Notes: generated by a model not told the origin, from the letters alone. Counted from the first letter of the whole stretch, positions 6,500 to 35,061 are shown. The stretch is 63,998 bases of DNA, filler included, from Candidatus Babelota bacterium (GCA_017999075.1; 8 parts of 8 records of this genome joined end to end with filler, not necessarily neighbours in it); one strand, 5' to 3'. Translations and numbers: made by a program.

Positions 6500-6557
6500 T
6501 AATTTTAATTTGTAATTTTAATTTATTAATTTTGCTATCAGGCTTTATTTAAATTAT

Positions 6558-15808: not shown

Positions 15809-15908
15809 NNNNNNNNNNNNNNNNNNNNNNNNNNNNNNNNNNNNNNNNNNNNTTAATTAATTAANNNNNNNNNNNNNNNNNNNNNNNNNNNNNNNNNNNN
15901 NNNNNNNN
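15809..15908. other. Artificial contig linker
   Basis: N-run + TTAATTAATTAA (stops in all frames) + N-run, 100 nt. Confidence 0.99.
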
Positions 15909-15910
15909 AA

Positions 15911-18043
15911 TTAAAACAAACGCCGCAAATATTATTTCTATTTACCCGCGTATTTTACATTACTGCGCGTCAAATCTATTCAACAAAAGCAGACAAAAAT
16001 GATTCGATTGATAATAACTGCGATTCATTTAAAACATTAAAAAAAATTATTGGCGGTCTGGATTCAAACGATTTACAGGAAAGATTTTATCGGTTAATTG
16101 AAATTATCATTAGATTAGTTGAACGCCGGCATATATGGAACGAATATTTGAATGCTTTGGAAGCAATTTTCAAACTCAAGGATTTCTTTTGTTCTATGTT
16201 CGAGAATATGGCGGCTGAATTAAAAGAAGAATTTATATTCAGACCCGTAGATATTGTTTTTGAAATCGGCGCGGATAATCTCAATCAAATTGAATTATTC
16301 CTGCTTACCGCTCATCTGCCGGATATTTTTCAGCATCATTATTATTTTAAGTCACTGCATTTATCTGGAACAGCTTATTCTGAATTTACTGAAAGTATAT
16401 GGCTTGAGTTTTTGAACAAAACAAATTCGCCGGCAATCAAACTCGATATTTTGCTGCGCGCAAGGCATTTCAATAATCTTAATCTGTTAAAATATGTTAA
16501 AGAATACAATCAATCGCTCGACAAAAATCTTTATATAATTGAATTATTAAAAATTATTGACGAAACAGATGCGCAATTCGATGTATTGCTTAATTCTATC
16601 AGCGAAGATAATAAATCCTTTGCAGTTAACGAAATTTTATATAATAAATTACGCGAGCCGCATTCCGCGATTGTTCGCGGCGATTTATCTTTGATTAGAA
16701 AGCTGAGCGTTTTAGAATATAAATACCTGCATTTTACAGTTAATAACCTTATTACATTACCGTATTATTATAAATATTATTTATATAAAAACAGGAATGA
16801 AATTAAACATAATTTTGCAACTGATTCTGACAGTTCAACCGATAATAATTTTTTTGTTTTTATTATGAAATATATAATTGCCGTATTGGCTGATTCGGAT
16901 AACTCAGTATCTCTTCAAGATATTATGAAGACATTCTTGAATTTTGGAAAGTTTGAAAATTCCGCTGATATTTACGCTTATTTTGATAAAAATATGTTCG
17001 AACTCTCTGCGCTGATTAATAAAAATAATTATAAAGAAATTTTATGCGATGATTATATTGAAAATAAAAAAATGAATTTTCTGAATATCAGGATTGCAAT
17101 TGATATTGTAAATAAAATCGATGCGGAGTATGCTTGTTCATATCTTAAAACTAAACTTGAAAATCTTTATGCAGCCGCCAATAATAAGATTGAATTTTAT
17201 CAGAATATTTTTACGGTGTTTGCCTATGATTGCGGCGCGATGGATGCGGATTATTATTTTAAATACATTGAGCGGGTGCCGGCCGCTGAACTGAAATTTT
17301 CGGTTAAAAATATTTTAACTAATTTTATCAGCGGTTTTAAAAAATCAGGAAAAAATGATAGAGCGGACCTCTACAATAAATTGATTAATGTTAACGAAAA
17401 TAATATTTATAAATTATGCGCGGTTATTGCAATACTTGAAAACTGCAACGAAAATGACAATAACGAATTTTCTAAATATTCAACGCAATTATTTAAAATA
17501 ATTGATATACTGGATAATGAAAATAAAATTCGCGTAATTGATTACGAACTTTTAAATGTTTTTATAATGCGCGATAATAAAGCGGATGTTATTCAGCTTA
17601 TTGCAGTAATCGAACGATTGCTTGAGAATAATAAAAATAATATTTATATGTATTTGCTTGCGCTTGACGCGGCAGGATTTTCTAAATATTTGAATAGAAA
17701 TTTTGTATGCAGGTTGGCTGAATATCTTTATGATAATATCGCGTATTTAGAAAATTGTTCTGAATATTACGGTTTTACAGATGCAATTTCAGGACAAAAT
17801 AATGAATTTCCGTTTATACGCAATTTGATTGATTGTTTAGTTGAAGCAGGTTTTTTCGAAAATAATAATAAGACGCTTCAGAATTTTATAAAAAGGTTTG
17901 CGCGGTTTCCGCAATATACAATGTATCTTACAGGCAAATTAATTTATAAATATTTTGAAACTCAATCTGATGAGCATAAAAAAATAATGTTGGCTAATAT
18001 GATTAGCGATATTGATTTTATTAATACGCGGAATTTTGAATAA
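15911..18043 (+). CDS. Hypothetical helical, Asn/Tyr-rich protein, 5' partial
   Basis: Frame is open from the contig start through the listed 16148 start; more than 700 codons; no recognisable motif. Confidence 0.7.
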   Translation, partial: LKQTPQILFLFTRVFYITARQIYSTKADKNDSIDNNCDSFKTLKKIIGGLDSNDLQERFYRLIEIIIRLVERRHIWNEYLNALEAIFKLKDFFCSMFENMAAELKEEFIFRPVDIVFEIGADNLNQIELFLLTAHLPDIFQHHYYFKSLHLSGTAYSEFTESIWLEFLNKTNSPAIKLDILLRARHFNNLNLLKYVKEYNQSLDKNLYIIELLKIIDETDAQFDVLLNSISEDNKSFAVNEILYNKLREPHSAIVRGDLSLIRKLSVLEYKYLHFTVNNLITLPYYYKYYLYKNRNEIKHNFATDSDSSTDNNFFVFIMKYIIAVLADSDNSVSLQDIMKTFLNFGKFENSADIYAYFDKNMFELSALINKNNYKEILCDDYIENKKMNFLNIRIAIDIVNKIDAEYACSYLKTKLENLYAAANNKIEFYQNIFTVFAYDCGAMDADYYFKYIERVPAAELKFSVKNILTNFISGFKKSGKNDRADLYNKLINVNENNIYKLCAVIAILENCNENDNNEFSKYSTQLFKIIDILDNENKIRVIDYELLNVFIMRDNKADVIQLIAVIERLLENNKNNIYMYLLALDAAGFSKYLNRNFVCRLAEYLYDNIAYLENCSEYYGFTDAISGQNNEFPFIRNLIDCLVEAGFFENNNKTLQNFIKRFARFPQYTMYLTGKLIYKYFETQSDEHKKIMLANMISDIDFINTRNFE

Positions 18044-18059
18044 TAAAAGGATGTGCAAA

Positions 18060-19115
18060 ATGGATATTAAAAATTCAATATGTGTGATAGGTATAGGCGG
18101 CGCTGGTATAAACTGCATTGAAACAAACATTATAAAAAATAAATCGCTTTTGGATGTTGATGTTTTTGCGGTTGATTCCGATAATCAGACATTAGACAAG
18201 GTTAGAAATAGTTGCGTATTTCCTATTCAGACAGGCGTAACATCATTGAACGGCTTGAGTTCGGGCGCGGATTTGCTTAACGGGCGGCGCGCGTTCAAAG
18301 AAAAAGCGGTCGAGATTGAAAGCATTTTAAAAAATAAAAAATTAGTAATTATAATCGCCTCGCTTACGCGCGGCACAGGCGCAGCCGGTATTTTCGAGAT
18401 TATTAATATTGCTGAAAAATATTCAATCAATATTATACCGATAATAATCAACCCATTCGATTTTGAAGGTCCGCAAAACCGGTTCGTCAATGATTTGCAT
18501 CTTTATATTATCTCGCATTTTAATAAACATATTTTCATTATTGACAATCAGAAAATGATGAACTTTCAAAACGAGAATTTTGTTAATACCTGCGAAAAAG
18601 TTAATATTATAATCTGGAAATTTATTAATCAGATTTTGAATTACTGTATTTTGAATCAATCCGCCAGAATAATGCCTGCGATGTTTTCAGCAGCCGAAAA
18701 CACTGAAGACATTCTTAAAATTGAAGTTTATGATAAAGAATTTAAAAATATCAGCGGGCTTGTAACGCGCATACGCAAAGACGCTGCGCTGATGAATAAT
18801 TATATGTCGTCATTTATCGGCATCATTGAATCGTATAAAAAACGCATAGAAAAACTTGAGAAAGGCGAGACAACGATTGAAACCGCAGTCAATAAACCCG
18901 TTAATTTTGAGGTATATTCACAAAATTCAACTGCCGTTACTATTGCCGGAACATTCAATAACTGGGAACCCGATATGTATAAACTGAATTCTGTCGGCAA
19001 TGACAAATGGCAGATTATTCTTAATCTACCGACCGGCAGATATGAATACAAATTTATCGCTGACGGCGACTGGGACAAACTTAATCAGTGGAACAGGGTA
19101 ACGGTTATAAGATGA
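18060..19115 (+). CDS. FtsZ/tubulin-like GTPase N-domain fused to a coiled coil and a CBM48/AMPK-beta-like glycogen-binding domain
   Basis: VIGIGGAGIN, AVDSD, ASLTRGTGAAG, PFDFEG, IDNQK; C-terminal VTIAGTFNNW...W...LNLPTGRYEYKFIADGDW; AGGATG RBS before ATG 18060. Confidence 0.85.
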   Translation: MDIKNSICVIGIGGAGINCIETNIIKNKSLLDVDVFAVDSDNQTLDKVRNSCVFPIQTGVTSLNGLSSGADLLNGRRAFKEKAVEIESILKNKKLVIIIASLTRGTGAAGIFEIINIAEKYSINIIPIIINPFDFEGPQNRFVNDLHLYIISHFNKHIFIIDNQKMMNFQNENFVNTCEKVNIIIWKFINQILNYCILNQSARIMPAMFSAAENTEDILKIEVYDKEFKNISGLVTRIRKDAALMNNYMSSFIGIIESYKKRIEKLEKGETTIETAVNKPVNFEVYSQNSTAVTIAGTFNNWEPDMYKLNSVGNDKWQIILNLPTGRYEYKFIADGDWDKLNQWNRVTVIR

Positions 19116-19253: not shown

Positions 19254-19353
19254 NNNNNNNNNNNNNNNNNNNNNNNNNNNNNNNNNNNNNNNNNNNNTTA
19301 ATTAATTAANNNNNNNNNNNNNNNNNNNNNNNNNNNNNNNNNNNNNNNNNNNN
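19254..19353. other. Artificial contig linker
   Basis: N-run/TTAATTAATTAA/N-run. Confidence 0.99.
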
Positions 19354-19896
19354 TTTTATTCTGTTAGTATAGATGTTCAGGAATTATTCTATAAATTGCG
19401 ATATCCTGCAATATATGAAAAAGTTGAAAATAATATTAAAGAATTTTTAAATATGAATAATAATAAAATAAAAACTCAAGTTTCACTAGTAAAAACAAGG
19501 TATCATAATGAGGAAGATTTGGATTTATTCAAAAAAATATGGGAGGATAAAGTGAATATAGTCCGGATATATGAGGAACATTCTAGTGACGGGAAATTTG
19601 GTTCATTGAAAATTAAAAGAAATAACCGACAAACTTGTGTGATGCCTTTTTATGAAATGCTTGTTTATTACAATGGCACATTAGGTAGATGTAACCATGA
19701 CTGGGACAGCAACGATATTGGCGATTTGAATTATAATTCTATATCCGAAATATGGAATAATAATTTTTATAAAGATTTGCGCGTTCAGCATAAGAGTTTA
19801 AAAATAACAGATGAAGTTTGTAAGAATTGTGATTGCTGGTATCCTGAAATTGCAAAACAAGGAACAGGAGAAGTTATAAAAAATGAAAAAAATTGA
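19354..19896 (+). CDS. Radical SAM/SPASM-domain protein, C-terminal part (5' partial)
   Basis: Open from contig start; SPASM/twitch motif C-x-x-PF...G...C..DW...IG...IW...CKNC. Confidence 0.8.
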   Translation, partial: FYSVSIDVQELFYKLRYPAIYEKVENNIKEFLNMNNNKIKTQVSLVKTRYHNEEDLDLFKKIWEDKVNIVRIYEEHSSDGKFGSLKIKRNNRQTCVMPFYEMLVYYNGTLGRCNHDWDSNDIGDLNYNSISEIWNNNFYKDLRVQHKSLKITDEVCKNCDCWYPEIAKQGTGEVIKNEKN

Positions 19897-21022
19897 TAAT
19901 TTTATACCGCTTGCAAAGCCCGTAATAACAGATTCTGAAATAAATTCTGTTGTGGAAGTTATAAATTCTGGCTTTTGGACCACAGGTCCTAAAGTAAAAG
20001 AATTTGAGACGCAAATAATAAATTATTTGGGAAATGATTTGTTCTGTATTGCTTTGAATTCATGTACAGCAGGATTGTTTTTGAGTTTGAAAGCTTTGAA
20101 TATCGCTGCTGATGATGAAGTGATTGTTCCCACTTGGACATTTGCCGCTACAGCTCAAGTTGTTGAATGGGCAGGAGCTAAATTAGTTTTATGCGATGTT
20201 GAAGAAAGCAGTCTTAATATAGATGTTGATAAACTTGAAAAATTAATTACATCAAAAACAAAAGCAATAGTGCCGGTTCATTTTGCAGGATATCCATGTG
20301 ATATGGATAGAATTTTAAATCTTGCAAATAAATATAATTTATATGTTATTGAGGATGCGGCCCACGCAATTGGTTCGAAATATAAAAATATTAAAATAGG
20401 TAATTTTGGAGATACAACAGTATTTTCATTTTATGCTACTAAAAATCTTGCTTGCGGGGAAGGTGGGATGGTTGTTTCCAAAAACGGGAAACTGATTGAA
20501 AAAATATCTAAATTATCTTACTTTGGGATAAATAAATCTGCTTTTAACCGTTATACTGAAAAAGGCAACTGGTATTATGAAATTGAAGATTTAGGATATA
20601 AATTTAATTTTGATGATATTCATGCTGCTATAGCGCTTGAACAATTAAAAAAAATAGATATTATGAATAATCGGCGACGGGAGATTGCAAAGTATTATAA
20701 AGAAAATTTAGACAGTAAAATAACTTTTATTAAAGATTCTGAAGATAAATACCATACATATCATTTATTTCCTATAATATTACCGGGAAATATTAATAGA
20801 GATGAATTTATTCTGAAATTGAAAGAAATGAACATAGGGGCAAGTGTTCATTTTATTCCTCTTCACAAACATCCTTATTATAAAAAAAAATATTTAGATA
20901 AACATTTTCCGGCTGCAGATAAAATTTATCCGAATATTTTATCAATACCGATGTCTCCTGTATTAAAAGATATTGAAATTAAATATATTGCTGAAATTAT
21001 AAATAACTTAGTAATAAACTAA
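19883..21022 (+). CDS. DegT/DnrJ/EryC1/StrS PLP-dependent sugar aminotransferase
   Basis: TTGPKVKEFE, NSCTAGL, PVHFAG, IEDAAHA, FSFYATKNL, GEGG. Confidence 0.95.
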   Translation: MKKIDNFIPLAKPVITDSEINSVVEVINSGFWTTGPKVKEFETQIINYLGNDLFCIALNSCTAGLFLSLKALNIAADDEVIVPTWTFAATAQVVEWAGAKLVLCDVEESSLNIDVDKLEKLITSKTKAIVPVHFAGYPCDMDRILNLANKYNLYVIEDAAHAIGSKYKNIKIGNFGDTTVFSFYATKNLACGEGGMVVSKNGKLIEKISKLSYFGINKSAFNRYTEKGNWYYEIEDLGYKFNFDDIHAAIALEQLKKIDIMNNRRREIAKYYKENLDSKITFIKDSEDKYHTYHLFPIILPGNINRDEFILKLKEMNIGASVHFIPLHKHPYYKKKYLDKHFPAADKIYPNILSIPMSPVLKDIEIKYIAEIINNLVIN

Positions 21023-21038
21023 GGCGGAGGAGTTATTT

Positions 21039-22373
21039 ATGCTGGATTCTTTTGAAAATTTTAAAAATAAAGCTTTGCGACAAAAAACAATTTCTGTTTG
21101 GGGTTTAGGTTATTTGGGATATACAACAATTTTACTGCTTCAAAAAAACGGATTTAAAGTTAATGTGTTTGATTTTAATGGCGAAAGAATGGAATTATTG
21201 AAAAAAAATAAATACCCTGAACTATCTCAAATTAAAAGTTGGTCAATGCTTTCGAATTGCCCTGCTCTTGATATAAGTAAAATTACAATTGTTAATGATA
21301 TAAAAGAAATGTTTAATACAAATATTCATTTAGTAGCGATTCCTAATGAGAATACGAATTTAAAAATTCAAAATCAATATTCTGAAATAGCTGATATCTT
21401 TGGTCAGAATTTTTTTGAAAATCAAGATGAAAAAAATTTGATAATTTTTCTTTCTGCCTCTTTTCCTAATAGCATAAAGGAACTTTTTATAGAAAAAATG
21501 AAAGATTCCAATAATATTATAATTGCGGCTGCATTTAGAAATGATTGGACCATAGAAAAATTTTTTGCTGATGATTATAAATATTTTGCGGCGGCAGATG
21601 ATGAAAAAAATTTAGATTACATAAGATTTTTCTTCAAAATAATGCGGTCGGAAAATTTTATATTATTTGACAATATTAAAGAATGTGAATTAAATGAAAA
21701 TTTGCGGAAAGTTTTAGAATGGGGGATTTCATCTCTTTGCAATCAGATTATGTTTGCTTTTCCAAAAGTAAACATCAAAAAAATCACAAAATCAGTATTA
21801 AAAAATATGGATTTAGAAAATATACTTATAAAAATAAGTTTAGGTGGATATAAATATCCGATGGCAGTCCGTAATATTTTCAAAAGTGCCGAACATCCGG
21901 AAATATTGACTATTTTAAAGGAAATACAATCTGCTGAGTTATCAGAAATTTTACAATTTGTTGAGTTTACCAAAAAGAATAATATTAAAAATGCTGCTAT
22001 TTTAGGTATAACTACTTATTCCAATAAAAAGGAAATAGAATATTCAACGTCTGTTATACTTGCAGAAGCCTTAAATAATGCAGGTATAAATGTATTTATT
22101 AATGATCCCTTATATTCAAAAAAAGAAATAAATGAATTATTTCCTGATTATAATTATTTTAATATTGATAAACAGATGCATAAAATAGAAATTTTATTTT
22201 TAATGACTTCGCATAAAGAATATGCATTTTACACACAAAAGGATTTAGATGAGTTTATAACTGACAAAATTTCTTATATTGTTGATAATGTGGGGTTGTG
22301 GGAAAATATGTCTTTTTCGGATTCTGTATCATATTATAGTATAGGAACCGGTAATTTAGATATTTTAAAATAG
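21039..22373 (+). CDS. UDP-glucose/GDP-mannose dehydrogenase-like protein, divergent active site
   Basis: GLGYLG Rossmann motif; C-terminal AILGIT...NDP...MTSHKEY...IVDNVGLW; catalytic K and C motifs not recognisable. Confidence 0.7.
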   Translation: MLDSFENFKNKALRQKTISVWGLGYLGYTTILLLQKNGFKVNVFDFNGERMELLKKNKYPELSQIKSWSMLSNCPALDISKITIVNDIKEMFNTNIHLVAIPNENTNLKIQNQYSEIADIFGQNFFENQDEKNLIIFLSASFPNSIKELFIEKMKDSNNIIIAAAFRNDWTIEKFFADDYKYFAAADDEKNLDYIRFFFKIMRSENFILFDNIKECELNENLRKVLEWGISSLCNQIMFAFPKVNIKKITKSVLKNMDLENILIKISLGGYKYPMAVRNIFKSAEHPEILTILKEIQSAELSEILQFVEFTKKNNIKNAAILGITTYSNKKEIEYSTSVILAEALNNAGINVFINDPLYSKKEINELFPDYNYFNIDKQMHKIEILFLMTSHKEYAFYTQKDLDEFITDKISYIVDNVGLWENMSFSDSVSYYSIGTGNLDILK

Positions 22374-22381
22374 AGTTAAAA

Positions 22382-24061
22382 ATGTGCGGAATAGCTGGGA
22401 TAATAGATTATAATAATTATTTTGAAAGTACGGATAATTTAGTTCGAAATATGTTGCTTAAAATCCGTCACCGCGGACCTAATCAGTCCGGGATAAAACA
22501 ATATGCTAAAATCGTTTTAGGAATGAACAGATTAAGTATAATTGATAATAAAGAACACGATATACCGTATAATTCAATAGATGATAAATATGCGATAGTT
22601 TATAATGGTGAAATTTATAACTATAAACAAATATTTAATAATTTGAATAATGAATATAAAATAAAATTGAATTCGGATGCCGAAGCAGTTTTGTATAGTT
22701 ATATCAAATATGGCACAAAAGCATTTAAAGATTATAACGGCATGTATACTTTTGCCATCTATGATTCAGTTGCTGAAAAGGTAATCATTGCACGGGATAA
22801 AACCGGAGAAAAACCATTATATTATGCTTGTGCTCACAATTATTTTATTTTTTCTAGTGAAGCAAAAGCTTTGCTGGAAATAATCAAACCGGAAATAAAC
22901 AAAAATTGTTTAACATATCAGGCTTATGAATTTTGTGCTGAAAAAGAAACATTGTTTAAAAATATTTATCAATTAGAGCCAGGAGAATATATTGAAATTG
23001 ATATAAGAAAGAAAAATTTTAATATAAGCAGTTATTGGAAAATCTGGGATAATTTATATGAAGTAAATGATGATTATAGTTATATAAAAAAGAAGTTAAC
23101 TGAACTTTTAGAAGATGCAATTTTGTTAAGAACAGAAAATAAAATTGATAATCACGGGGTTCTAGTAAGCGGCGGGTTGGATAGCGCTATTGTAGCTGCT
23201 ATATCAAAACCCGAATATATTTATACATGTCATTATGATATAGGTCCTGATTATGATGAACTTGAATATGCTAAAATACTGGCGGATCATTTAAAAAAAG
23301 AACTGATAATAATTACTCCGTCACCTGGTGATTTTAAAAGAACTAAAGATAAAATAGCCTATTATTTGGATACGCCTTGTACCTGGACTTCATTCAGTTT
23401 GTGGATGCTTCTTGAGAGAATATCAAAAGATGTTAAAATTTTGCTGAGTGGCGATGGCGCTGATGAATTATTCTCTGGTTATTATAGATATCTTCTTTTG
23501 TACCATGATGAACAAATTAAACAATTAAAATCTATGAAACAGTATTCCTACTTAATAAGTCAGTATTATGGTTCAGCAGTAAAAAGATATGCTAAATTAG
23601 TAAACAGATGTGAAAATTTAATGGATAAAAATGTAAGTAATTATCTAATAGATAGCATAGGTTTTTATTTTGATAAAATGAATGATGACATAATTCATTC
23701 TATGGGGGTAACAGATTATTATACTACAATGCAGGTGAATCTCCAAATGGCGGACAGATTAAATATGGCTTTTTCAATGGAAAACCGTTCTCCGTTTTTA
23801 GATTACCGGATAGTTCAATTTGCATTCAGTATCCCGTCAAAATATAAAATAAATAATGGGATAACAAAATATATTCTGAAAGATATTTCACGTAGTTTGA
23901 TTCCGGATGTAATAATAGACAGGATTGACAAAAGGGGTTTCAGCGCACCGCTTAACCGCTGGTTTGGATGGGATAAATATGGTAAATACGATAGATCGGC
24001 ATATAAGAATGTTGTATTTCAGGACTGGAAAACTATTTATGGAATAAAGGGTAATATATGA
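22382..24061 (+). CDS. asnB: Asparagine synthase-like glutamine-dependent amidotransferase (WbpS/WbqG-like sugar amidation likely)
   Basis: MCGIAG, HRGP, RLSIID, NGEIYN, SGGLDS, SGDGADELF, ENRSPFLD, KRGF. Confidence 0.93.
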   Translation: MCGIAGIIDYNNYFESTDNLVRNMLLKIRHRGPNQSGIKQYAKIVLGMNRLSIIDNKEHDIPYNSIDDKYAIVYNGEIYNYKQIFNNLNNEYKIKLNSDAEAVLYSYIKYGTKAFKDYNGMYTFAIYDSVAEKVIIARDKTGEKPLYYACAHNYFIFSSEAKALLEIIKPEINKNCLTYQAYEFCAEKETLFKNIYQLEPGEYIEIDIRKKNFNISSYWKIWDNLYEVNDDYSYIKKKLTELLEDAILLRTENKIDNHGVLVSGGLDSAIVAAISKPEYIYTCHYDIGPDYDELEYAKILADHLKKELIIITPSPGDFKRTKDKIAYYLDTPCTWTSFSLWMLLERISKDVKILLSGDGADELFSGYYRYLLLYHDEQIKQLKSMKQYSYLISQYYGSAVKRYAKLVNRCENLMDKNVSNYLIDSIGFYFDKMNDDIIHSMGVTDYYTTMQVNLQMADRLNMAFSMENRSPFLDYRIVQFAFSIPSKYKINNGITKYILKDISRSLIPDVIIDRIDKRGFSAPLNRWFGWDKYGKYDRSAYKNVVFQDWKTIYGIKGNI

Positions 24062-26694
24062 GTTTCAATAATCATTCTTTAATTGAAATTTTAAATAGGA
24101 ATAGGTGCTCTAATGATACATGGCTTACAATATATAAAGGTTCAATCGCAGAGGATTATTCATATAAGGATATATGCAGTAGAATAAATGACTATATACA
24201 TTATTATGATTATTTAAATATTGAAAAAAACGAGCTTGTTTTAATAATTTTAAAAGAGTCAATTGATTTGTTTGGAGCTTTTATTGCCGGTATTTTATAC
24301 GGAATTTTACCTGCTTTTTTTGCATACCCTTCAGAAAAACAAAACAAAAGTGTTTTTTTAGAATCGTTGAATAATTTGTTTAGTTATAATAAAATACATT
24401 ATATTGTAACTTATTCCGAATTAGCAGTTTTATTGGAAACTCAACAGTTAAACTATAATACTAAAATAATTTTATATGAAAAAGTAAAATACAGTCATAA
24501 TGATTGCCTTGATAATAATCTGAATGAAAATACGGGGAATTTTTTACAATTCACTTCCGGAACCACGAATCACAAGAAGGGGGTTAAATTATCGCTGAAA
24601 TCATTAATGAATCAGATAAATGCATATGAGAAGCATCTTTCTTTAAATAAAAAAAGTAAAATAATTTCATGGTTGCCGCATTATCATGATATGGGATTAA
24701 TTTCGTGTATGCTTTTGCCGCTGATAAAAAATATACCTCTTATAATGATGTCGCCATTTGACTGGGTTAAACGTCCTCAATTATTATTTGAAGGTATTAC
24801 AAGATACAAAGCGACACATTTATGGCTGCCTAATTTTGCGCTTGCGCATCTTGCTAAAAGTATAAATGATTCGGAAATAAAAAAATATGATTTAAGCTCA
24901 GTTGAATTTTTAACATGCTGCTCTGAACCATTGTCATATAACACAGTATTTAATTTTATAAATAAATTTTCTGAAACCGGAATTACAGCAGATAAAATTT
25001 ATAATTGCTATGCTATGGCTGAAAACACATTCGCCATGACTTCGACTTCAAGAGAAAATCTGTGTTTCACTGATTTTCAGGGAAAAAAATTTTTTATAAA
25101 AGATTTAAAAAAAATAATTGATGTCAAATTATTCGCAAGCGTTGGTATTAAATTGGATAATATTAAAATTAAACTTATTGATAATTATAATAAAGAAATT
25201 AATAGCGATGGAATTCAAGGCAACATTTTAATTCAAAGTGATTGTATGCTTTCGGAATATCACAATAATCCTGAAGAAACACAAAAATCCTTTATTGACG
25301 GCTGGTTTTCGACAGGTGATATCGGTTACTGGCTGGATAATGAATTATATATCTGCGGCCGAAAAAAAGATATGATCATTGTTGCAGGCGAAAATATTTT
25401 TCCTGAAGATATTGAAACAATATTGAATGAACATCAGGGATTTATTCCGGGGCGAAATGTTGTGTTCGGCGTATTCGATGATAATATAGGAACTGAGAGA
25501 ATTATTATACTAGCTGAAACCAGCGAAAAAAATAATGTTGATATTTTAAAGTTGAAAAAAGTTATTTTTGACAGACTGAATATTTCAGTTTTTGAATTTA
25601 TTTTATTGCCGCATATGACTTTGAGAAAAGGGACTGCGGGAAAAATATCGAGATATTTAAATAAACAATTCTATCTTGAAGGAAAGTATGATGAGTACAG
25701 GCACCACCTCCTAAATACATCAGAATTTAATATTGAAGAAAATGGAGATTTTTCAGAATTAAAAAAATATATTTTAGAAATTATTCCGGATATTAATTTC
25801 CGGAACAATACAAAACTTTTTACCTCAGGAATTATGGATTCATTTTCATTTCCTGTTCTGATTTTAAAATTGGAAGAAATTTATAGTATAAAAATTCCGG
25901 AAACGTTATTATCTGTGGATAATTTTGATAGTTTGGAAAAAATCACTGAGACAATAAAACTAATAAAAAATAATAGTTCTGCTAAACTGAATTTTGATAT
26001 ATTAGATAATAATGCGGAAGACTATTCGGAATCTTATAAAAAATTATGCGACAGACTTTCGCCGCCGGGAGAAGTGTATAATCTAATTGAAAAAATGATA
26101 AATAATTTCCCTTTACATGTCAGTAAATTTTATTGCTGTATGTTTAAACTTTTGGGAATAAAAATTGGAAATAATGTTAAATTTTTAGGAAGCGTAAAAA
26201 TAAAAATTCGAGGGAAGGCAGAGAATATTATTATAGGAAATAATGTTATTATTGGAGATAATGTTGATTTTAGAAATCGTGAAAATGGTAAAATTATTTT
26301 AAAAGATAATGTTTCATTGGATAATAATGTGAGAATTGTAGCTGCCAGGGAAGGTAGTGTTGAGATAGGAAAAGGCAGCGGATTAGGGGCCAATTGTGTT
26401 ATAAATTCAGGTGGTAAGGTTAAAATAGGTGAATTTACAATGATCGCTGGAAATGTAAATATAAATTCGTCAAGTCATGGAACTGACAAGAACAGTTATC
26501 TGATGATACAGCCGCATCGCCATGGTTCTGTATCAATTGGAAATGATGTCTGGATAGGAAGCAACGCATCTGTACTAATTAATTCTGAAGTTGGTGATGG
26601 CGCTGTAATATCCAGTAATTCATTAGTGTCAGGGAAAGTTCCTTCATTTTCTGTTTTTGCAGGTGTTCCTGCGAAATTTATTAGAAAAAGATAA
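24058..26694 (+). CDS. Acyl-AMP ligase (FAAL-like A domain) + acyl carrier domain + hexapeptide (LbH) acyltransferase fusion
   Basis: FTSGTT..KKG, WLPHYHDMGLI, YAMAE, TGDIG, GRKKDMII; carrier motif GIMDSF; hexapeptide repeats ending IGNDVWIG...GVPAKFI. Confidence 0.88.
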   Translation: MSFNNHSLIEILNRNRCSNDTWLTIYKGSIAEDYSYKDICSRINDYIHYYDYLNIEKNELVLIILKESIDLFGAFIAGILYGILPAFFAYPSEKQNKSVFLESLNNLFSYNKIHYIVTYSELAVLLETQQLNYNTKIILYEKVKYSHNDCLDNNLNENTGNFLQFTSGTTNHKKGVKLSLKSLMNQINAYEKHLSLNKKSKIISWLPHYHDMGLISCMLLPLIKNIPLIMMSPFDWVKRPQLLFEGITRYKATHLWLPNFALAHLAKSINDSEIKKYDLSSVEFLTCCSEPLSYNTVFNFINKFSETGITADKIYNCYAMAENTFAMTSTSRENLCFTDFQGKKFFIKDLKKIIDVKLFASVGIKLDNIKIKLIDNYNKEINSDGIQGNILIQSDCMLSEYHNNPEETQKSFIDGWFSTGDIGYWLDNELYICGRKKDMIIVAGENIFPEDIETILNEHQGFIPGRNVVFGVFDDNIGTERIIILAETSEKNNVDILKLKKVIFDRLNISVFEFILLPHMTLRKGTAGKISRYLNKQFYLEGKYDEYRHHLLNTSEFNIEENGDFSELKKYILEIIPDINFRNNTKLFTSGIMDSFSFPVLILKLEEIYSIKIPETLLSVDNFDSLEKITETIKLIKNNSSAKLNFDILDNNAEDYSESYKKLCDRLSPPGEVYNLIEKMINNFPLHVSKFYCCMFKLLGIKIGNNVKFLGSVKIKIRGKAENIIIGNNVIIGDNVDFRNRENGKIILKDNVSLDNNVRIVAAREGSVEIGKGSGLGANCVINSGGKVKIGEFTMIAGNVNINSSSHGTDKNSYLMIQPHRHGSVSIGNDVWIGSNASVLINSEVGDGAVISSNSLVSGKVPSFSVFAGVPAKFIRKR

Positions 26695-26714
26695 ATATAT
26701 TGATGGAGAATAAA

Positions 26715-27068
26715 ATGAAAACAGATTTAAAACAAAAACCGCGGAAATTCAAATTAAAAGATACTGTAATAAAAGATTATGGAAAAATTTTTCTTGAAAA
26801 TGGTGAAATGGTTTCATTTGTTACTAAAAGCGGGAAAGAATGTGATTTTAATGCATTTGACTGGGGTTTTTATTTAGGCCCGTCTCTTAATGGAAGATTG
26901 AAAAATGAAGGTTTTAAAACCGCATTAGTTCTTAATGAAGCTGGAAGAATTTATATCAATGCTGTTGAGAAAGAAAAAATTGAAGAATTTAAAAAGTATT
27001 TGACGACTAACCAAAACAATAAAATATTATGCTGGCTGGATGAATGGCTGGCTGATAGCAATAATTAA
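26715..27068 (+). CDS. Conserved hypothetical protein in glycan-modification cluster
   Basis: GGAG RBS before ATG 26715; conserved-looking WGFYLGPSLNGRL motif; tightly packed in the operon. Confidence 0.7.
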   Translation: MKTDLKQKPRKFKLKDTVIKDYGKIFLENGEMVSFVTKSGKECDFNAFDWGFYLGPSLNGRLKNEGFKTALVLNEAGRIYINAVEKEKIEEFKKYLTTNQNNKILCWLDEWLADSNN

Positions 27069-27095
27069 AAACAAATTTAAAAATTGGAGGATGAA

Positions 27096-28226
27096 ATGAA
27101 GTTTTGTAAAAAATGTGTTTTACCTGACACGCGCCCGGGAGTTGAATTAAATGAAGATGGTATTTGTTATGCTTGCATTGGCGCAGCAGAAAAAAAAGAA
27201 GAAATTGACTGGGCAGCAAGAGAACAGGAATTAATAAAAATTTTGAATGAAAATAAAAGTAAAGATTCGGGATGGGATTGCATTGTTCCAGTGAGTGGGG
27301 GTAAAGATAGTACGTGGCAGATTTATAATATTAAAAAACGATATAACTTAAATCCCCTTGCTTTAACCTATAAAGCTCCATGCAGAAATTCTCTGGGGGC
27401 GAAAAATTTACAGAATTTAATCAATATTGGAGTCGATCATATTGATTTTACTGTAAACCCGAAAGTTGAAAAACGTTTTATGCTAAAAGCATTGGAAGAA
27501 AAAGGAGCTGTCGCGTTATTAATACATATGATATGTTGGGCGTTGGCATTAAAATTTGCTGTAAAGTTTGGAATAAAACTTGTTGTATGGGGTGAAAATA
27601 CAGGTTTGGAATACGGCGGCAATAAGAATGATAGAGAAAATCCGTATTTGAATCATGAATGGATGCGGAAATTTGGTGGAATGAATGATACTTTTGCAGA
27701 AGACTGGATTGGCGAAGACTTGACAAAACAGGATATGTATCCGTTTATTATTCCGTCAGATGAAGAACTGAAAAAAGCGCAGGTGAGTTCTCTGTTTTTA
27801 GGTTGGTTTTTAAAATGGGATCCGCTGGAAGTTGCAGAATTTTCTAAAAATGTGGGTTTTAGCTGGGCTGATAAACCCACTATTGGATATTATCCGTTTT
27901 GTGATCTTGATGATGATTTAATTGTAATGCACCATTTTTTTAAATGGCCTAAATTCGGAATAACAAGGATGTGGGATAATTTAGCGATTGAAATTAGAAA
28001 CGAAAGAATGACACGGACTGAAGCTGTTAATTATATAAAAAATAATCCTGAACCTTTACCTGAATATAACATAAACGCTTTATGTAATTATCTTGAAATA
28101 TCAAGAGAAAGGTTCTGGGAGATTGTTGAATCGCATAGGAATAAAAAAATCTGGCATAAAGAGAATGGTAAATGGATTTTACCTGCTGTGATTGAAGAAT
28201 TCGGATTTATGCCTGAAATATATTGA
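27096..28226 (+). CDS. N-acetyl sugar amidotransferase (WbuX/PseA/WbpG-like PP-loop)
   Basis: CKKCVLPDTRP, CYAC, PP-loop VSGGKDS, WGEN, EYGG, KFG.TR; GGAGG RBS. Confidence 0.92.
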   Translation: MKFCKKCVLPDTRPGVELNEDGICYACIGAAEKKEEIDWAAREQELIKILNENKSKDSGWDCIVPVSGGKDSTWQIYNIKKRYNLNPLALTYKAPCRNSLGAKNLQNLINIGVDHIDFTVNPKVEKRFMLKALEEKGAVALLIHMICWALALKFAVKFGIKLVVWGENTGLEYGGNKNDRENPYLNHEWMRKFGGMNDTFAEDWIGEDLTKQDMYPFIIPSDEELKKAQVSSLFLGWFLKWDPLEVAEFSKNVGFSWADKPTIGYYPFCDLDDDLIVMHHFFKWPKFGITRMWDNLAIEIRNERMTRTEAVNYIKNNPEPLPEYNINALCNYLEISRERFWEIVESHRNKKIWHKENGKWILPAVIEEFGFMPEIY

Positions 28227-28301
28227 AACTTTAATAATTTCAATTTTCAGGTTGAACACACAGTCCTATATATAAATTGTTTTAAAACGTATTGCATTAT
28301 T

Positions 28302-30128
28302 ATGAATATAATTTTTAGAGCCGATACAGGGATTGATATAGGAATAGGCGATTTGTTATCCTGTATTAATTTAGGAATGACACTGGAAAAATATGGTCAT
28401 AAATGCGTATATCTGGTAAGAGACTCAGTTTCTTCAATTCAGTTACTTGAACGATATGACTTTGAATACGAAATAATGTCTTTGAAAATGTCGATAAAAC
28501 AAGAATGTGTTTTTATTGAAGAAAAATGTAAACAGTACAGCGCGGATGTCCTAATATTGGAAATCACACGGAATAGTTATAATGAATATCAATTTTCGGC
28601 GAAACCTGCACGGGTATTAGCGGCTATTGATTTTCAGGGAAGCGCTGACAGCAGATTTGATTTGATAGTGAACTGGGAAATTAATTCTAATTTGTTATAC
28701 AATGAAAAAAAATTTCCATCTACAAATTTTCTTCTTGGACCCGATAAGGTTATACTGTCTGATGAGATTTGCAGTTTTCGGCAATACAATAAAAATGTGG
28801 AAAAACCAGGGATTGAATCTGAAAAATTAAAAGTTTTAATAACATTTGGCGGTTCTGATTCTGTTGATTCAACTTCCAAGATGTTAAAAAGTTTGAGTCG
28901 AATTTCAAGCAATCTTGAAATTAAAGTTATTATTGGTGATGCTAATGTAAATTTGGAATCTGTTAAAAAAAATGTTGAATTGTTGAATCATAAAATTGAA
29001 ATTTTGCCGTCACAGAAAAGTATTGTTTATTTGTTGAATTGGTGCGATATTATAATTTGCGCAGGCGGTCTTACAGTATCTGAAGTTGTTGCGTTAAGAA
29101 AATCTGCAGTTGTGATTGCTAACTGTGAACATCAGATTCCGAGATGTGAGTATTTTTATAAAATGAATTTGATATCATATCTGGGTTTTTGCGAGAATAT
29201 TGATTTCGAAAAATTGTATGATAATCAAAAGTTTGTCAGGATATTTAATGATTCAGAATACCGCAATAAACTATCTGAAGAATGTGCGGAAGCTTTTACT
29301 GCGTTTGGAGGTAATGAGCTTATACGATTTAATATAGAAAATTTGGGATTGCAGGCAGATAGAAATAATATTGAAAAGAAAAAATCTGTTGTGATTTTAT
29401 CTTTGAATTCGTTTCCTGGTCTGATTTCGAAGCTTGTTGAATCAGGATTTCGGGTTATTTGTTTATTTGTTGAAAATAAGTCAGAAAAACGCGTAGAAAA
29501 TGTGATAGATGAATTAAAAATGAAATCTGTTGAATTTCATTTTTATAATAAAAAGACTGCCGAAGAATTTTTGAGGGGAAATTGTCAGGAATATGATTAT
29601 TTGCTTAGTATGGGGTGGCCTTATATAATTTCTGAAGATATTGTTGAATTGTGGGAAGGCAGAGCATTCAATGTTCATCCTGCAGTGCTGCCGGATTATC
29701 CGGGATATTCGCCCGAATGGGAAGTTATATCCGCTGATGAATATGAACATGGTTTAACGTTTCATTTGCTTGATAAAAAAGCGGACACAGGGAAAATATT
29801 ATTTCAAAAAAGATTTCCTGTTGATATTACTTATAATGCTACTGATTTAAAAGAAAGCGCATTTAGAAAAATACCGGGGTTTGTTGCTGACTCAATGAAT
29901 AAGCTTTTAAGTTTAAATTTTGATACTATTGAGTTTCCTTTTAATGAAATTAAAAAATACTGTCCTCCGAGAAAACCTTCAGATAGTTTAATTGATGTTG
30001 AAAAAAAAATGATTGATATTGTCCCCGCTATAAGAGCGGCGGATACGAAAGCGTATCCCGCTTTTTTTTATTATAAAAATAAAAAGGTTAAAGTTAAATT
30101 TGAATATGCAGATCCAGATGAAAAATAA
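28302..30128 (+). CDS. PseG/SpsG-like GT-B nucleotide-sugar hydrolase fused to a C-terminal N10-formyl-THF formyltransferase
   Basis: FRAD...IGIG, ITFGGSD, ICAGG.T.SE, EHQ; then NVHPAVLPDYPG, G.TFH, DTG, IRA..YPAFF. Confidence 0.85.
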   Translation: MNIIFRADTGIDIGIGDLLSCINLGMTLEKYGHKCVYLVRDSVSSIQLLERYDFEYEIMSLKMSIKQECVFIEEKCKQYSADVLILEITRNSYNEYQFSAKPARVLAAIDFQGSADSRFDLIVNWEINSNLLYNEKKFPSTNFLLGPDKVILSDEICSFRQYNKNVEKPGIESEKLKVLITFGGSDSVDSTSKMLKSLSRISSNLEIKVIIGDANVNLESVKKNVELLNHKIEILPSQKSIVYLLNWCDIIICAGGLTVSEVVALRKSAVVIANCEHQIPRCEYFYKMNLISYLGFCENIDFEKLYDNQKFVRIFNDSEYRNKLSEECAEAFTAFGGNELIRFNIENLGLQADRNNIEKKKSVVILSLNSFPGLISKLVESGFRVICLFVENKSEKRVENVIDELKMKSVEFHFYNKKTAEEFLRGNCQEYDYLLSMGWPYIISEDIVELWEGRAFNVHPAVLPDYPGYSPEWEVISADEYEHGLTFHLLDKKADTGKILFQKRFPVDITYNATDLKESAFRKIPGFVADSMNKLLSLNFDTIEFPFNEIKKYCPPRKPSDSLIDVEKKMIDIVPAIRAADTKAYPAFFYYKNKKVKVKFEYADPDEK

Positions 30129-30822
30129 GCGTATAGTGATTTTACAACCGGCATATATTCCCTGGTTGGGATATTTTGAGCAGCTGGACATGGCAGATGT
30201 TTTTATTTTTCTTGATCATGTTCAATATACCAAAAGATGCTGGTATAATAGAAATTATATAACTGACAAACAGGGTAACAAAATATTATTGACGATACCG
30301 CTCCAGAATATTCATAGAAATACTTCGATTGAATTCACCGAACTCAATGAAGAACATAATGACTGGATTTGCAGGCATTTAAAAACTGTTAAACATAATT
30401 ATTGCAAAACAAGGTATTTTGATGAGGTTTATTCTCTCTTTGAAAAAGAGTTGAATAATAATTATAAATATTTGGGTGAATTGACTATAAGTATTATTGA
30501 GCGTATTTCTGAATATCTCGGTTATAATACACAGCTTTATAAAAGTTCGGATTTTGAATTTAATAATAAAAAAGAATATCTGATGCTGGAAATCTGCAGA
30601 AAATTTTCTGCAGATGTTTTGCTGACAGGAGAATCAGGAAAAGATTTATATGACTATGATTTTTTTATTTCAAACGGAATCAAGGTGGAATATCAAAAAT
30701 ATAAACACCCGGTTTATCAACAGCAGCATAAAAATTTTGTGCCTTATTTGAGTGTGATTGATTTACTGTTTAATTACGGAAAAAAATCAAGGGATATAAT
30801 TCGAACCGTGGTATCATATTAA
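30118..30822 (+). CDS. WbqC-family protein (putative glycyl/acyl transferase)
   Basis: QPAYIPWLGYF, DHVQY, WYNRN, HPVYQQ, LSVIDLLFNYG. Confidence 0.92.
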   Translation: MKNKRIVILQPAYIPWLGYFEQLDMADVFIFLDHVQYTKRCWYNRNYITDKQGNKILLTIPLQNIHRNTSIEFTELNEEHNDWICRHLKTVKHNYCKTRYFDEVYSLFEKELNNNYKYLGELTISIIERISEYLGYNTQLYKSSDFEFNNKKEYLMLEICRKFSADVLLTGESGKDLYDYDFFISNGIKVEYQKYKHPVYQQQHKNFVPYLSVIDLLFNYGKKSRDIIRTVVSY

Positions 30823-30837
30823 AAAGGAAGTGCAGAA

Positions 30838-31920
30838 ATGGAGTTGTTTAATCTTAAAACTGTAGTTAATAATTTTGCTCAGGATGAATGTGAAAAAGAT
30901 TTAAAAAGAGCAGAATCTTATTACGAAAAAAATAATGAAATTAATAATTTATATCTGAATAATAATCTTGAAATCATTAAAAATCCAGGTGATTATATTT
31001 TAGCGAAAAATTTGGGTAAAAAATATTTACCGGGCATCAGAGTTCGTAATTACAGTTCTCCTGATAATTTTCCTCTTAGATTGAATATAGAAATTACAAA
31101 CGAGTGCAATTCCAAATGTAAAATGTGCAGCAGAGTTAAAATGAACCGTAAAGAAAGGCATCTGTCGTTTAATGAATTTAAAAATATTATTGATCAGACT
31201 AAAGGACATAATTTGGTAGAATTATATCTTTACAGGTTAGGGGAACCTTTTTTAAATCCCGGACTGCCGCAGATGCTGGAATATTTAAAAAGTTTTAATA
31301 ATTTTGAATATATCTGGATAAGTTCAAATGGGTTGGAGCTTACTGAAAAGCATATGGATATGGTTTTAAACAGCAACATTAGAATGTTTAATATGAGTAT
31401 AAACGCAGCCTATCAGGAATCATACAGTAAAATAAACGATATTGGAAAATTAAAAACAGTTGAAGACAATTTCCGGAAAGTTATCGAACACAAAAAAAAA
31501 TCTAATAATAGATTACCATTTATGAGGTCGCAAATGCTTATTCAGGATGCAACAGAAGAAGAAGGAAAATTCTTTATCGAAAAATGGCAGGACTACGCTG
31601 ATATTATAAATTTAGGAATAATTGAATTTGGAAGCACCCTTGATTTTAATAAAGAAATTTCTAATAAGTATCATACTGTAAATATTGAAGCGGATTGCAA
31701 AAAACCTGCCAGATACAGTTTTTATCTGTATACTAACGGTGCAGTAGTTCCGTGTATGTGTGACTATAATGCTGAGTATTTGAATATTGGTAACTGGCGA
31801 GATGACTCCCTTGAAAAAATTTTTAAGGGCAGTAAATATCAGAGTTTTTTATCCAGGCATTTTAATGAGAAACGCCATGAAATTGAATTTTGTAAAGACT
31901 GTTTAGACTACACATTTTAA
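30838..31920 (+). CDS. Radical SAM/SPASM-domain protein
   Basis: IEITNECNSKCKMC (CX3CX2C), GEPFLN, SNG, C-terminal C..P...G..VPC.CD...CKDC. Confidence 0.92.
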   Translation: MELFNLKTVVNNFAQDECEKDLKRAESYYEKNNEINNLYLNNNLEIIKNPGDYILAKNLGKKYLPGIRVRNYSSPDNFPLRLNIEITNECNSKCKMCSRVKMNRKERHLSFNEFKNIIDQTKGHNLVELYLYRLGEPFLNPGLPQMLEYLKSFNNFEYIWISSNGLELTEKHMDMVLNSNIRMFNMSINAAYQESYSKINDIGKLKTVEDNFRKVIEHKKKSNNRLPFMRSQMLIQDATEEEGKFFIEKWQDYADIINLGIIEFGSTLDFNKEISNKYHTVNIEADCKKPARYSFYLYTNGAVVPCMCDYNAEYLNIGNWRDDSLEKIFKGSKYQSFLSRHFNEKRHEIEFCKDCLDYTF

Positions 31921-31937
31921 AAAAGGAGAATTGTATT

Positions 31938-32633
31938 ATGGAATGTAATGAGGAGTTTAAAAAAAATAAAAAGGTATGGAGCGATTTTTACAGTCAGGAT
32001 ACTAAAAATTGTAAATTTTACGATGAAAATATTGTAAGATTATTTTCAAGTAAAGAACCGGATATACCTGCGCCTCCGGCTAAGATATTAGATCATGGAT
32101 TTGGAAGCGGTAACAATATAAAATTTTTACTGGAAAAAGGATATCAGGTATTTGGCGCTGAAATAAGCAAATCTGCTGTTGAAAAACTGGATAAAGAATT
32201 TAATGAAAATCGAAAAACAGTTGATCTGAAAGAAATAAATGGTTACGAAATGCCTTATGAAGACAATTTTTTTGATATCGTATTATCGTGGAATGCGCTT
32301 CATTATAATGCTACTATAGAAAATGCTCAGATGGTTAATCAGGAACTGTACAGGGTTCTAAAACCCGGAGGTGTTTATATTTTATCTACAATAACAACTG
32401 AACATACTTTATGTATTGGCGCTGAAGAACTTAAAAAAGGACATTTTGCTGTTAAATCTAATCATAGATTTGATAATCGAGGTGGATTGAAGTTATTTGT
32501 GCCTGTATCTAAAGAACATTTTCTTGAAGTTTATGGCTGGAAATTCAAAAATATTAGATATGGATGGATTAATGTTAACTTGTTTATTCCTGATAAAGTT
32601 TTAGCCTGCCATTTGATGTATGGTGTTAAATAA
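31938..32633 (+). CDS. Class I SAM-dependent methyltransferase
   Basis: ILDHGFGSG, GAEIS, FDIV, RVLKPGG. Confidence 0.9.
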   Translation: MECNEEFKKNKKVWSDFYSQDTKNCKFYDENIVRLFSSKEPDIPAPPAKILDHGFGSGNNIKFLLEKGYQVFGAEISKSAVEKLDKEFNENRKTVDLKEINGYEMPYEDNFFDIVLSWNALHYNATIENAQMVNQELYRVLKPGGVYILSTITTEHTLCIGAEELKKGHFAVKSNHRFDNRGGLKLFVPVSKEHFLEVYGWKFKNIRYGWINVNLFIPDKVLACHLMYGVK

Positions 32634-32635
32634 AA

Positions 32636-33544: not shown

Positions 33545-33575
33545 ATAACATAAAACTCATTACTGGAGTATTTAA

Positions 33576-34771: not shown

Positions 34772-34784
34772 AAATAACAGGAGT

Positions 34785-35061
34785 ATGATTATGAATTTGT
34801 GGTTAGATTGGGATGAATTTAATGATTTAACAAAAAACAGAAATACTGTTTTATTCGGATCAGGGGATATTGCAGTAAAAACTATTTATAAATTATCTAA
34901 CAAACCCTTGTTTATAGTAGATAATTCAGATCAGCTTCAGGGACAAGTTTATGAAGGAGTTTATGTTAAAAAACCATCGGTATTGAAAGAGTTGAGTAAA
35001 GATTGTATTATTATAATTACTACAAAATCATATAATAGCGTGATTGTTGAATTGAAAGAAA
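34785..35061 (+). CDS. N-terminal Rossmann-like domain protein typical of glycosylation loci, 3' partial
   Basis: VLFGSG, FIVDNS, G..V..P, IIITT; runs into the linker. Confidence 0.6.

Follow-up and report, generated by a model that had tools for sequence, protein, structure and literature searches.

A single open reading frame (ORF) in a 63,998-nucleotide window (the whole stretch of DNA that was analyzed) from Candidatus Babelota bacterium (GCA_017999075.1) encodes, in one chain, an adenylation (A) domain of the fatty acyl-AMP ligase (FAAL) type, a carrier protein (CP) domain and a left-handed beta-helix (LbH) acyltransferase domain (Table 1). Comparison with homologous sequences and gene neighborhoods suggests that this fusion is probably a self-loading, carrier-dependent glycan acyltransferase with an acceptor of the nonulosonic acid (NulO) type. 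A preliminary description of this DNA had already placed the three domains in one chain, and this was borne out for A, carrier and LbH by profile hidden Markov models (HMMs), PDB matches and sequence motifs. The logic it proposed, in which a loader charges its own carrier and the carrier feeds the LbH domain, is strongly favored by an invariant carrier serine, by permuted and CP-LbH forms of the protein, by a homologue with an LnmK-type loader and by LbH-only orthologues in the same gene cassette; we infer, more cautiously, that the transfer itself would be independent of coenzyme A (CoA), as was also claimed.

An assembly chimera or a frameshift joining separate genes, or a decayed gene with a dead carrier, could also account for such an ORF. 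The source metagenome-assembled genome (MAG), from an uncultured bacterium of wastewater or digester origin, is indeed fragmented (3.83 Mb in 594 contigs, 87% complete) and the fusion's own carrier escapes the Pfam PP-binding model (see below). Such an artefact is nevertheless very improbable, being already contradicted by comparative data. A domain-architecture search, which the preliminary description had proposed, classed by domain HMMs the best 120 homologues listed from 5.8 billion proteins: 70, from many sources, have the A-CP-LbH order, one is permuted, five are A-CP and 44 consist of the A domain only. Thirty-three homologues are collinear with the fusion across both linkers, at 33-51% identity. 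A second search, with a profile of the carrier and LbH part against 1.84 billion representatives at 50% identity, returned 130 clusters at E ≤ 1e-30, with 17 full-length fusions (at least 858 aa) among the best 150 clusters. In addition, a 6220-nt Logan contig from an independent assembly pipeline, though perhaps from the same sample as the MAG, covers positions 23800-26900 with no differences and no gaps. Two further studies, on an anaerobic digester and on activated sludge, also have runs with short contigs of identical sequence, and one such contig spans 25814-26002; joint matches of 20-30 nt to unrelated contigs were disregarded. The invariant carrier serine likewise argues against decay. 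The sequencing-error explanation is therefore ruled out by the shared architecture together with the 6220-nt contig, and the fusion is confirmed, at the level of sequence, as genuine and recurrent.

The A domain was recognized by the Pfam AMP-binding model (residues 31-401, E = 2.9e-35). The top NCBIfam model, NF006624 ("fatty acyl-AMP ligase"), matched residues 26-545 at 1.7e-76 with 257.8 bits against a cut-off of 600 bits, and since the remaining NCBIfam FAAL models likewise stayed under their curated cut-offs, the domain is FAAL-like with no named equivalog. With a profile of 33 family sequences, the closest solved structures were FAALs (3kxw, 1.6e-102; 3pbk, 2.3e-83; FadD32, FadD23 and FadD28), and the A-PCP (peptidyl carrier protein) didomain of McyG was also among the best solved relatives. 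Core motifs A3, A5, A7, A8 and A10 are all found (TSGTTNHKKG, 166-175; YAMAEN, 318-323; TGDIGY, 419-424; GRKKD, 434-438; AGKISR, 527-532), and K174, E322, D421, R435 and the A10 lysine K529 are invariant in the 33 aligned sequences. The FAAL-specific insertion, which the preliminary description had named as a feature to check, is indicated by the way the alignments run: residues ~326-365 align to FAAL structures (L. pneumophila FAAL) in one piece with small gaps only, whereas the matches to CoA-ligase models and structures fall into two stretches, of which the best begins only at ~353-362 (boundaries approximate). This is as a FAAL-specific insertion predicts. In the structural model the insertion segment has a lower confidence, with a predicted local distance difference test score (pLDDT) of 66-67. 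For the FAAL-specific helix and blocked CoA pocket described for FAALs (PMC8460268), a candidate segment is MMSPF..(5)..P (residues 230-240), which also occurs in L. pneumophila FAAL in the alignment; P233, F234 and P240 are invariant in the family sequences.

Stand-alone FAAL-like proteins of ~549 aa (P0068-P0103; 44 of the 120 listed homologues) are 46-48% identical to the A domain, as close to it as the fused homologues are. Their gene contexts were considered as a clue to its role and rejected: the neighbors of the two that were looked at, L001:9857-11593 and L004:9944-11593, are DUF1302, GH20 and AAA/DUF4143 genes. These are not glycan loci, so the stand-alone proteins are uninformative on the role of the fusion.

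The carrier domain holds the motif GIMDSF (residues 591-596, nucleotides 25828-25845), in which Ser595 (codon 25840-25842) is the predicted phosphopantetheine attachment site. All 14 PDB matches of residues 547-659 were carrier proteins (Atu2571/aminoacyl carrier, ~4e-5; DltC, 1e-4), and the NCBIfam models that matched were DltC (2.8e-7) and three acyl carrier proteins (ACPs). The Ser595 column is serine in 112/112 sequences with a family carrier match, and Asp594 and Gly591 are each kept in 110 of these. An AlphaFold (AF2) model of the whole fusion (mean pLDDT 77.4; predicted template modeling score 0.62) predicts carrier helices at 566-575, 597-608, 620-623 and 626-641 (pLDDT 61-85), and Ser595 would sit directly ahead of helix 597-608 in a small helical bundle. 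Two phosphopantetheinyl transferases of the ACPS family, ORFs of 237 and 126 aa, are encoded on other contigs of the genome.

The C-terminal domain matched Pfam Hexapep at residues 825-859 (7.2e-10; 38.6 bits against a threshold of 27), and the AF2 model predicts a regular series of short strands over 745-860. Its top PDB matches were O-acetyltransferases of the SACOL2570/Maa/LacA type (1e-11), followed by weaker ones to CatB/Vat (2e-8) and polysialate O-acetyltransferases (1.5e-6). The best NCBIfam matches were WbbJ and the WcaF family (1e-18), at 67.4 bits against cut-offs of 243 (WbbJ) and 192 (WcaF family); NeuD/PglB/VioB followed at 1.3e-13, with 51 bits against 160.8. The domain thus appears slightly nearer to O-acetyltransferases than to N-acetyltransferases of the NeuD/PglD type, with all scores far below the cut-offs. 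His807 (codon 26476-26478) aligns with the histidine of the ATH motif in SACOL2570, which is the catalytic base in LacA and Maa, and its column is histidine in 199 of 207 LbH-family sequences. Fused and unfused LbH proteins conserve the catalytic core to the same degree; the two groups differ in three columns only (P0001 residues 805, Ser; 828, Gly; 859, Gly).

The coupling of these domains is best seen in homologues with other architectures. Permuted LbH-CP-A clusters exist (P0104, 864 aa; P0142, 874 aa), in which Pfam confirms both AMP-binding and PP-binding domains, and P0104 retains LDS at its carrier. CP-LbH didomains without an A domain are found in P0123 (309 aa), whose initial Met comes right at the carrier, and also in P0135 and P0136; for the CP-LbH protein of L098 (351 aa), a stop codon and a methyltransferase gene set the upstream boundary. 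A further candidate didomain, in L089, was rejected because it is identical to the fused P0057 and merely truncated by the end of a contig. In P0132 (663 aa), an LnmK-type hot-dog domain (Pfam, 2.9e-42) precedes the CP-LbH part. LnmK has been described as an acyltransferase/decarboxylase that places propionyl from methylmalonyl-CoA onto an ACP (PMC11350588), and P0132 would therefore have a different carrier loader in the position of the FAAL. The permuted, CP-LbH and LnmK-loaded forms are expected if the LbH domain takes its donor from the carrier, and are otherwise hard to explain.

Two side observations concern these variants. The L098 locus, which has CP-LbH and no FAAL, also holds a 407-aa ORF on the minus strand (2663-3886) with a class-II aminoacyl-tRNA-synthetase (aaRS) core (Pfam tRNA-synt_2b, 2.1e-7). 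We take the carrier of the fusion to be most like carriers that are loaded by aaRS-like ligases, and by analogy this ORF might be a loader acting in trans. Separately, P0206, P0224, P0235 and P0246 (545-600 aa) consist of three tandem related LbH units with no A-CP part, and may be single-chain pseudo-trimers like the C-terminal domain of Pls/PosA (see below).

The window is made up of MAG contigs with spacers between them, each of 44 N, 12 nt and 44 N (N blocks at 15809-15908, 19254-19353, 35062-35161, 38485-38584, 41908-42007, 57620-57719 and 61028-61127), so only the contig that carries the fusion, C31 (positions 19354-35061), provides valid gene context. The ORFs at both ends of C31 (19396-19896 and 34785-35117) are truncated by the contig ends, and those that reach N blocks (for example 34785-35117 and 35295-38540) are cut or artificial. 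Within C31, the sugar-modification operon of the preliminary description was recovered: Pfam and NCBIfam assign the flanking genes to sugar enzymes, and related loci have a similar glycan context. The fusion gene and the gene upstream of it share 4 nt (ATGA), at the start of the one and the stop of the other, and the downstream gene begins 5 nt past the stop of the fusion gene (Table 1). The order after the PseG-formyltransferase gene is WbqC, radical-SAM/SPASM, two methyltransferases, PIG-L and GNAT. In the PseG-formyltransferase protein (28302-30128), the PseG-like UDP-sugar hydrolase spans residues 1-279 and the formyltransferase domain residues ~416-595, a pairing that suggests an N-formylated NulO. 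On another contig (15909-19253), a Tubulin/FtsZ GTPase domain (4.5e-15) and, at the C terminus, a CBM48/AMPK glycogen-binding module (5.5e-12) occur together in a 367-aa ORF (18012-19115), an unusual pairing.

Table 1. The fusion gene, its domains and the neighboring genes on contig C31 (window positions)
Feature	Position	Strand	Remarks
Radical-SAM/SPASM gene			start of C31, cut by contig end; first in gene order
DegT-family aminotransferase	19883..21022	+	nearest PseC/ArnB, below equivalog cut-offs
NDP-sugar-dehydrogenase-like protein	21039..22373	+	weak match
AsnB-like glutamine amidotransferase	22382..24061	+	Pfam/NCBIfam; stop overlaps fusion start
Fusion ORF: FAAL-type A domain, carrier, LbH acyltransferase	24058..26694	+	878 aa; ATG start, TAA stop
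Adenylation domain, FAAL type, residues ~20-548	24115..25701	+	Pfam, NCBIfam and PDB matches, core motifs
FAAL-specific insertion site, residues ~327-357	25036..25128	+	unbroken alignment to FAAL structures
Carrier domain, residues ~560-642	25735..25983	+	PDB, NCBIfam, motif, AF2 helices
LbH acyltransferase module with N-terminal helical cap, residues ~645-878	25990..26691	+	Pfam, PDB, NCBIfam
Conserved ~120-aa protein (122 aa here)	26700..27068	+	no known family; most constant neighbor of the LbH module
WbuX-family N-acetyl-sugar amidotransferase	27084..28226	+	TIGR03573, 1.6e-98, above cut-off; PP-loop SGGKDS, Zn ribbon
PseG-like hydrolase fused to formyltransferase	28302..30128	+	Pfam/NCBIfam
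PIG-L-family de-N-acetylase	33576-34274	+	Pfam/NCBIfam
GNAT acetyltransferase	34271-34771	+	Pfam/NCBIfam

Of 4 genome and 39 metagenome loci that were searched with the window proteins and the domain HMMs, 25 hold a full LbH-family match: 12 encode A-CP-LbH, two CP-LbH and 11 an LbH protein only (~200-243 aa; the L109 copy is truncated to 147 aa by the end of its contig). Neither an A domain nor a carrier was found in the 11 LbH-only loci scanned. The same neighbors recur around both forms: the ~120-aa protein in 9/12 fused and 8/11 LbH-only loci (the three LbH-only loci without it are short contigs of 1.2-2.2 kb), an AsnB-like protein in 7/12 and 8/11, a WbuX-like protein in 6/12 and 8/11, and NeuB in 6/12 and 4/11. 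The closest relatives of C31, L102 and L104 (DegT 62-63%, AsnB 57% and first radical-SAM protein 57-58% identical), run radical-SAM, DegT, dehydrogenase, AsnB, a 209-aa LbH protein, WbuX, the small protein, AsnB and radical-SAM, and further on NeuB and PseG; C31 itself runs radical-SAM, DegT, dehydrogenase, AsnB, A-CP-LbH, the small protein, WbuX and PseG-formyltransferase. Because an LbH-only protein occupies the same slot in L102 and L104, the LbH domain appears to be the resident transferase of the cassette and the A-CP didomain an add-on.

This recurrent cassette of AsnB-like, WbuX-like, small and LbH proteins, with or without A-CP, is seen in the window at 22382-28226 and in L091:1-4034, L092:4641-10512 and L104:8290-13928, frequently with a second AsnB-like gene, usually beside NeuB. 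Members of the small-protein family (~115-130 aa; for example L002:9599-9949, L027:9583-9924 and L091:2974-3333) share conserved PRxF, WGFYATPSxNGRL and WLDE motifs, and their genes almost always abut the LbH or fusion gene or the WbuX-like gene. The AF2 model of the small protein is confident (pLDDT 84.6). Pfam and NCBIfam assigned it to no family, Foldseek found nothing in the PDB at E ≤ 0.001, a wide VIA-align search gave at best Z 5.1 over 44 residues (a generic beta-alpha-beta piece), and its ESM Atlas matches were clusters of "hypothetical protein" only. A complex prediction with three LbH copies and the small protein returned "no answer" with a score of 0.00, which is evidence neither way. 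In L088, a Mutator-family transposase gene (5573-6535, minus strand) lies between the small-protein and CMP-transferase genes and the fusion gene, which fits mobile or rearranged cassettes.

The mechanism that we propose would proceed in three steps. The FAAL-type domain would adenylate a free carboxylic acid, as expected from its family. The acyl group would then pass to the phosphopantetheine on Ser595 of the protein's own carrier, and not to CoA. Finally the C-terminal LbH domain, presumably a trimer, would move the acyl group from the carrier to the acceptor, with His807 as base. An amino acid, one of the substrates suggested in the preliminary description, is unlikely given the FAAL type of the A domain, and a fatty or hydroxy-fatty acid is our best guess. 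The acceptor would be a hydroxyl or amino group of a pseudaminic acid- or legionaminic acid-like NulO, or of a nucleotide-sugar precursor made by the same locus. The amine produced by the DegT enzyme, which had been singled out before, is only one candidate among several, and both N- and O-acylation may be considered. A variant specific to this locus is that PIG-L removes an N-acetyl group, the fusion would re-acylate that amine and the formyltransferase would formylate the other; PIG-L had no matches in the other scanned loci, and this idea is not conserved. In evolutionary terms, the LbH protein would be the resident transferase of the cassette, and the added A-CP didomain would change its acyl donor.

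The same domains could also be read as two independent activities, the LbH domain being an ordinary acetyl- or acyl-CoA-dependent sugar acetyltransferase and the A-CP part serving another enzyme, for example the adjacent ATP-dependent AsnB-like or WbuX-like amidotransferase, or one encoded elsewhere. LbH-only forms, 43-53% identical, stand in the same cassette in the 11 loci in which neither an A domain nor a carrier was found, their catalytic core is conserved as in the fused proteins, and the nearest solved and named relatives of the LbH domain are acetyl-CoA enzymes. We nevertheless hold this unlikely: the carrier stays on the LbH domain in homologues that have no A domain, a permuted order or an LnmK-type loader instead, and its serine is kept without exception. 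Another possibility leaves the loader-carrier-LbH chemistry intact and changes only the acceptor, which could then be some other small molecule, a lipid or, at the membrane, a completed polymer or a glycan linked to protein. Enzymes of the WbbJ/WcaF type often act on assembled repeat units, L006 encodes a flippase, a UDP-GlcNAc 2-epimerase and a glycosyltransferase with no NeuB in its 8.6 kb, and L099 (14.9 kb) and L101 (20.9 kb), where the fusion is accompanied by the small protein and an APH-like kinase, show no NulO or other glycan genes within ~10 kb. These two loci imply that some lineages may use an acceptor other than a NulO. For the protein studied here such an acceptor still has only a small chance of being the right one, since the C31 fusion is flanked on both sides by sugar-nucleotide enzymes in overlapping or nearly abutting frames, and NeuB recurs beside both fused and LbH-only forms.

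The reading that we prefer, a self-loading enzyme acting on NulO-type sugars, has several other observations to contend with besides L099 and L101. The Pfam PP-binding model (PF00550) gives no match to the fusion's own carrier even at E ≤ 10; homologues do pass its threshold of 20.8 bits (L002, 28.0; L027, 28.3), and the match is precomputed for 14 of the 120 listed homologues. All NCBIfam matches of the fusion protein lie below curated cut-offs. The protein reaches none of the curated family cut-offs at which it was scored here as a whole or by domain, and so belongs to three superfamilies while fitting no named family. P0132, the protein with the LnmK-type loader, lacks histidine at the aligned catalytic column. 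As LbH-only relatives in the cassette presumably use a soluble donor, the fused LbH domain might do so too. NeuB is encoded on two other small contigs of the MAG and not on C31. In the LbH tree, LbH-only proteins are scattered among fused ones, yet a single origin of the LbH-only forms is all that the well-supported branches require, and the tree gives no robust support for repeated gain or loss of A-CP; here one long-branch outgroup, L002_21491, was mislabelled as LbH-only, and the partial L109 sequence was left out. Finally, the full-length fusion protein was found in none of 40 related genomes, a set with one genome each of the same genus, family and class for this isolated lineage, the single same-genus genome searched being 97% complete.

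The statement in the preliminary description that LbH enzymes normally use acyl-CoA proved too general: the NCBIfam names of LpxA and LpxD specify acyl-ACP, and Pls/PosA combine A, thiolation (T) and LbH domains, so the carrier-fed LbH design is not without precedent. LpxA and LpxD O- or N-acylate a UDP-sugar from acyl-ACP. They resemble the fusion as LbH acyltransferases fed by acyl-ACP and differ in drawing on the free ACP of fatty-acid synthesis, with no fused loader or carrier; by sequence they are weak relatives (matches of 4e-7 to 4e-8 in L091 and L102). Pls and PosA, the epsilon-poly-L-lysine and delta-poly-L-ornithine synthetases, have been described as A, thiolation and C-terminal LbH domains in one chain, the last taking a carrier-bound acyl group and forming an amide (PMC10522769). 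Their model TIGR02353 matches the LbH domain of the fusion at 7.7e-12, with 44.4 bits against a cut-off of 423. They have, however, three tandem LbH units as a pseudo-trimer, six transmembrane helices, an A domain for amino acids and a polymerizing activity, whereas the fusion has, by domain HMMs, a single soluble LbH domain per chain, a FAAL-type A domain and a glycan locus, and is not a member of that family.

Adenylating enzymes show other partial likenesses. E. coli Aas (NF006386 match, 2.2e-25) also fuses an adenylating domain to an acyltransferase, works through an ACP intermediate and bypasses CoA, and FAAL fusions to lysophospholipid acyltransferases (LPLATs) are reported (PMC8460268, PMC12820801); their LPLAT/PlsC-type transferase works on phospholipids, while the fusion has an LbH transferase, a sugar locus and a carrier within the chain. 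The same sources describe FAAL-ACP loading didomains of polyketide synthases (PKS) and nonribosomal peptide synthetases (NRPS), in which a FAAL with the insertion is fused to its cognate ACP and CoA is rejected (PMC8460268, PMC12820801). There the downstream partner is a ketosynthase or condensation domain and not an LbH domain. Fusions to ACP, PKS/NRPS, LPLAT and reductase partners are covered by these two surveys, whose main texts contain the word "hexapeptide" 0 times, and five supplement files of PMC12820801 contain no LbH or hexapeptide term.

Free-standing acetyl-CoA enzymes such as WbbJ, WcaF, Maa, LacA, NeuO and OatWY share with the fusion the LbH fold, the aligned catalytic histidine and a C-terminal GxPAKxIR tail. 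They differ in using acetyl-CoA as separate proteins, and the fusion reaches only 67 bits against cut-offs of 192-243. Some glycan loci also encode comparable parts as individual genes; we take WbeK of Vibrio cholerae to be an ACP and WbeO an LbH acetyltransferase. The wbeK-O genes of V. cholerae O1, for tetronate on perosamine, include an AMP-ligase gene (wbeL) and ACP genes inside the glycan locus (PMC3441752). In the group II flagellin glycosylation islands of Aeromonas, the pse genes are reported to have as neighbors an ACP, a 3-oxoacyl-ACP reductase and an AMP-dependent synthetase, and the presence of a "liposugar component" has been put forward (PMC7874193). These systems, like DltABCD and AlmEFG, differ from the fusion (compared by description only) in having their components as separate proteins, with transferases of other families or unproven; a DltABCD-like trait of the fusion is its carrier, which is nearest to DltC and aminoacyl carriers. 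Our literature search, with limited coverage of subscription journals, found no description of the A-CP-LbH architecture, of carrier-dependent acylation of NulOs or of a carrier-fed LbH enzyme in a NulO locus.

Taken more widely, the data allow a tentative and rather doubtful proposal: an unrecognized family, with the fusion as its founding example, of carrier-fed LbH glycan acyltransferases with an interchangeable loader (fused FAAL, LnmK-type, permuted or in trans), which would place fatty or hydroxy-fatty acyl groups on NulOs without CoA, within an undescribed and widespread four-gene NulO-decoration cassette.

Pseudaminic and legionaminic acids bear many N- and O-acyl groups, among them acetyl, formyl, acetimidoyl, hydroxybutyryl and glyceroyl, which influence motility as well as recognition by phages and by the immune system. 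The enzymes that modify NulOs were called poorly known in 2017 (PMC5378307). The fusion is a single-polypeptide candidate for both the choice and the delivery of a non-acetyl acyl group. Though no new principle, it stands for an enzyme family that is widespread, readily testable and so far unstudied. The uses of FAAL domains are extended by it past PKS/NRPS and phospholipid contexts, and if the proposed mechanism is true, the module could be used to place designed acyl groups on sialic acid-like sugars. The natural variants, with LbH alone, CP-LbH, FAAL- or LnmK-loaded and permuted forms, provide a series in which to follow how an LbH enzyme may switch between CoA and carrier donors.

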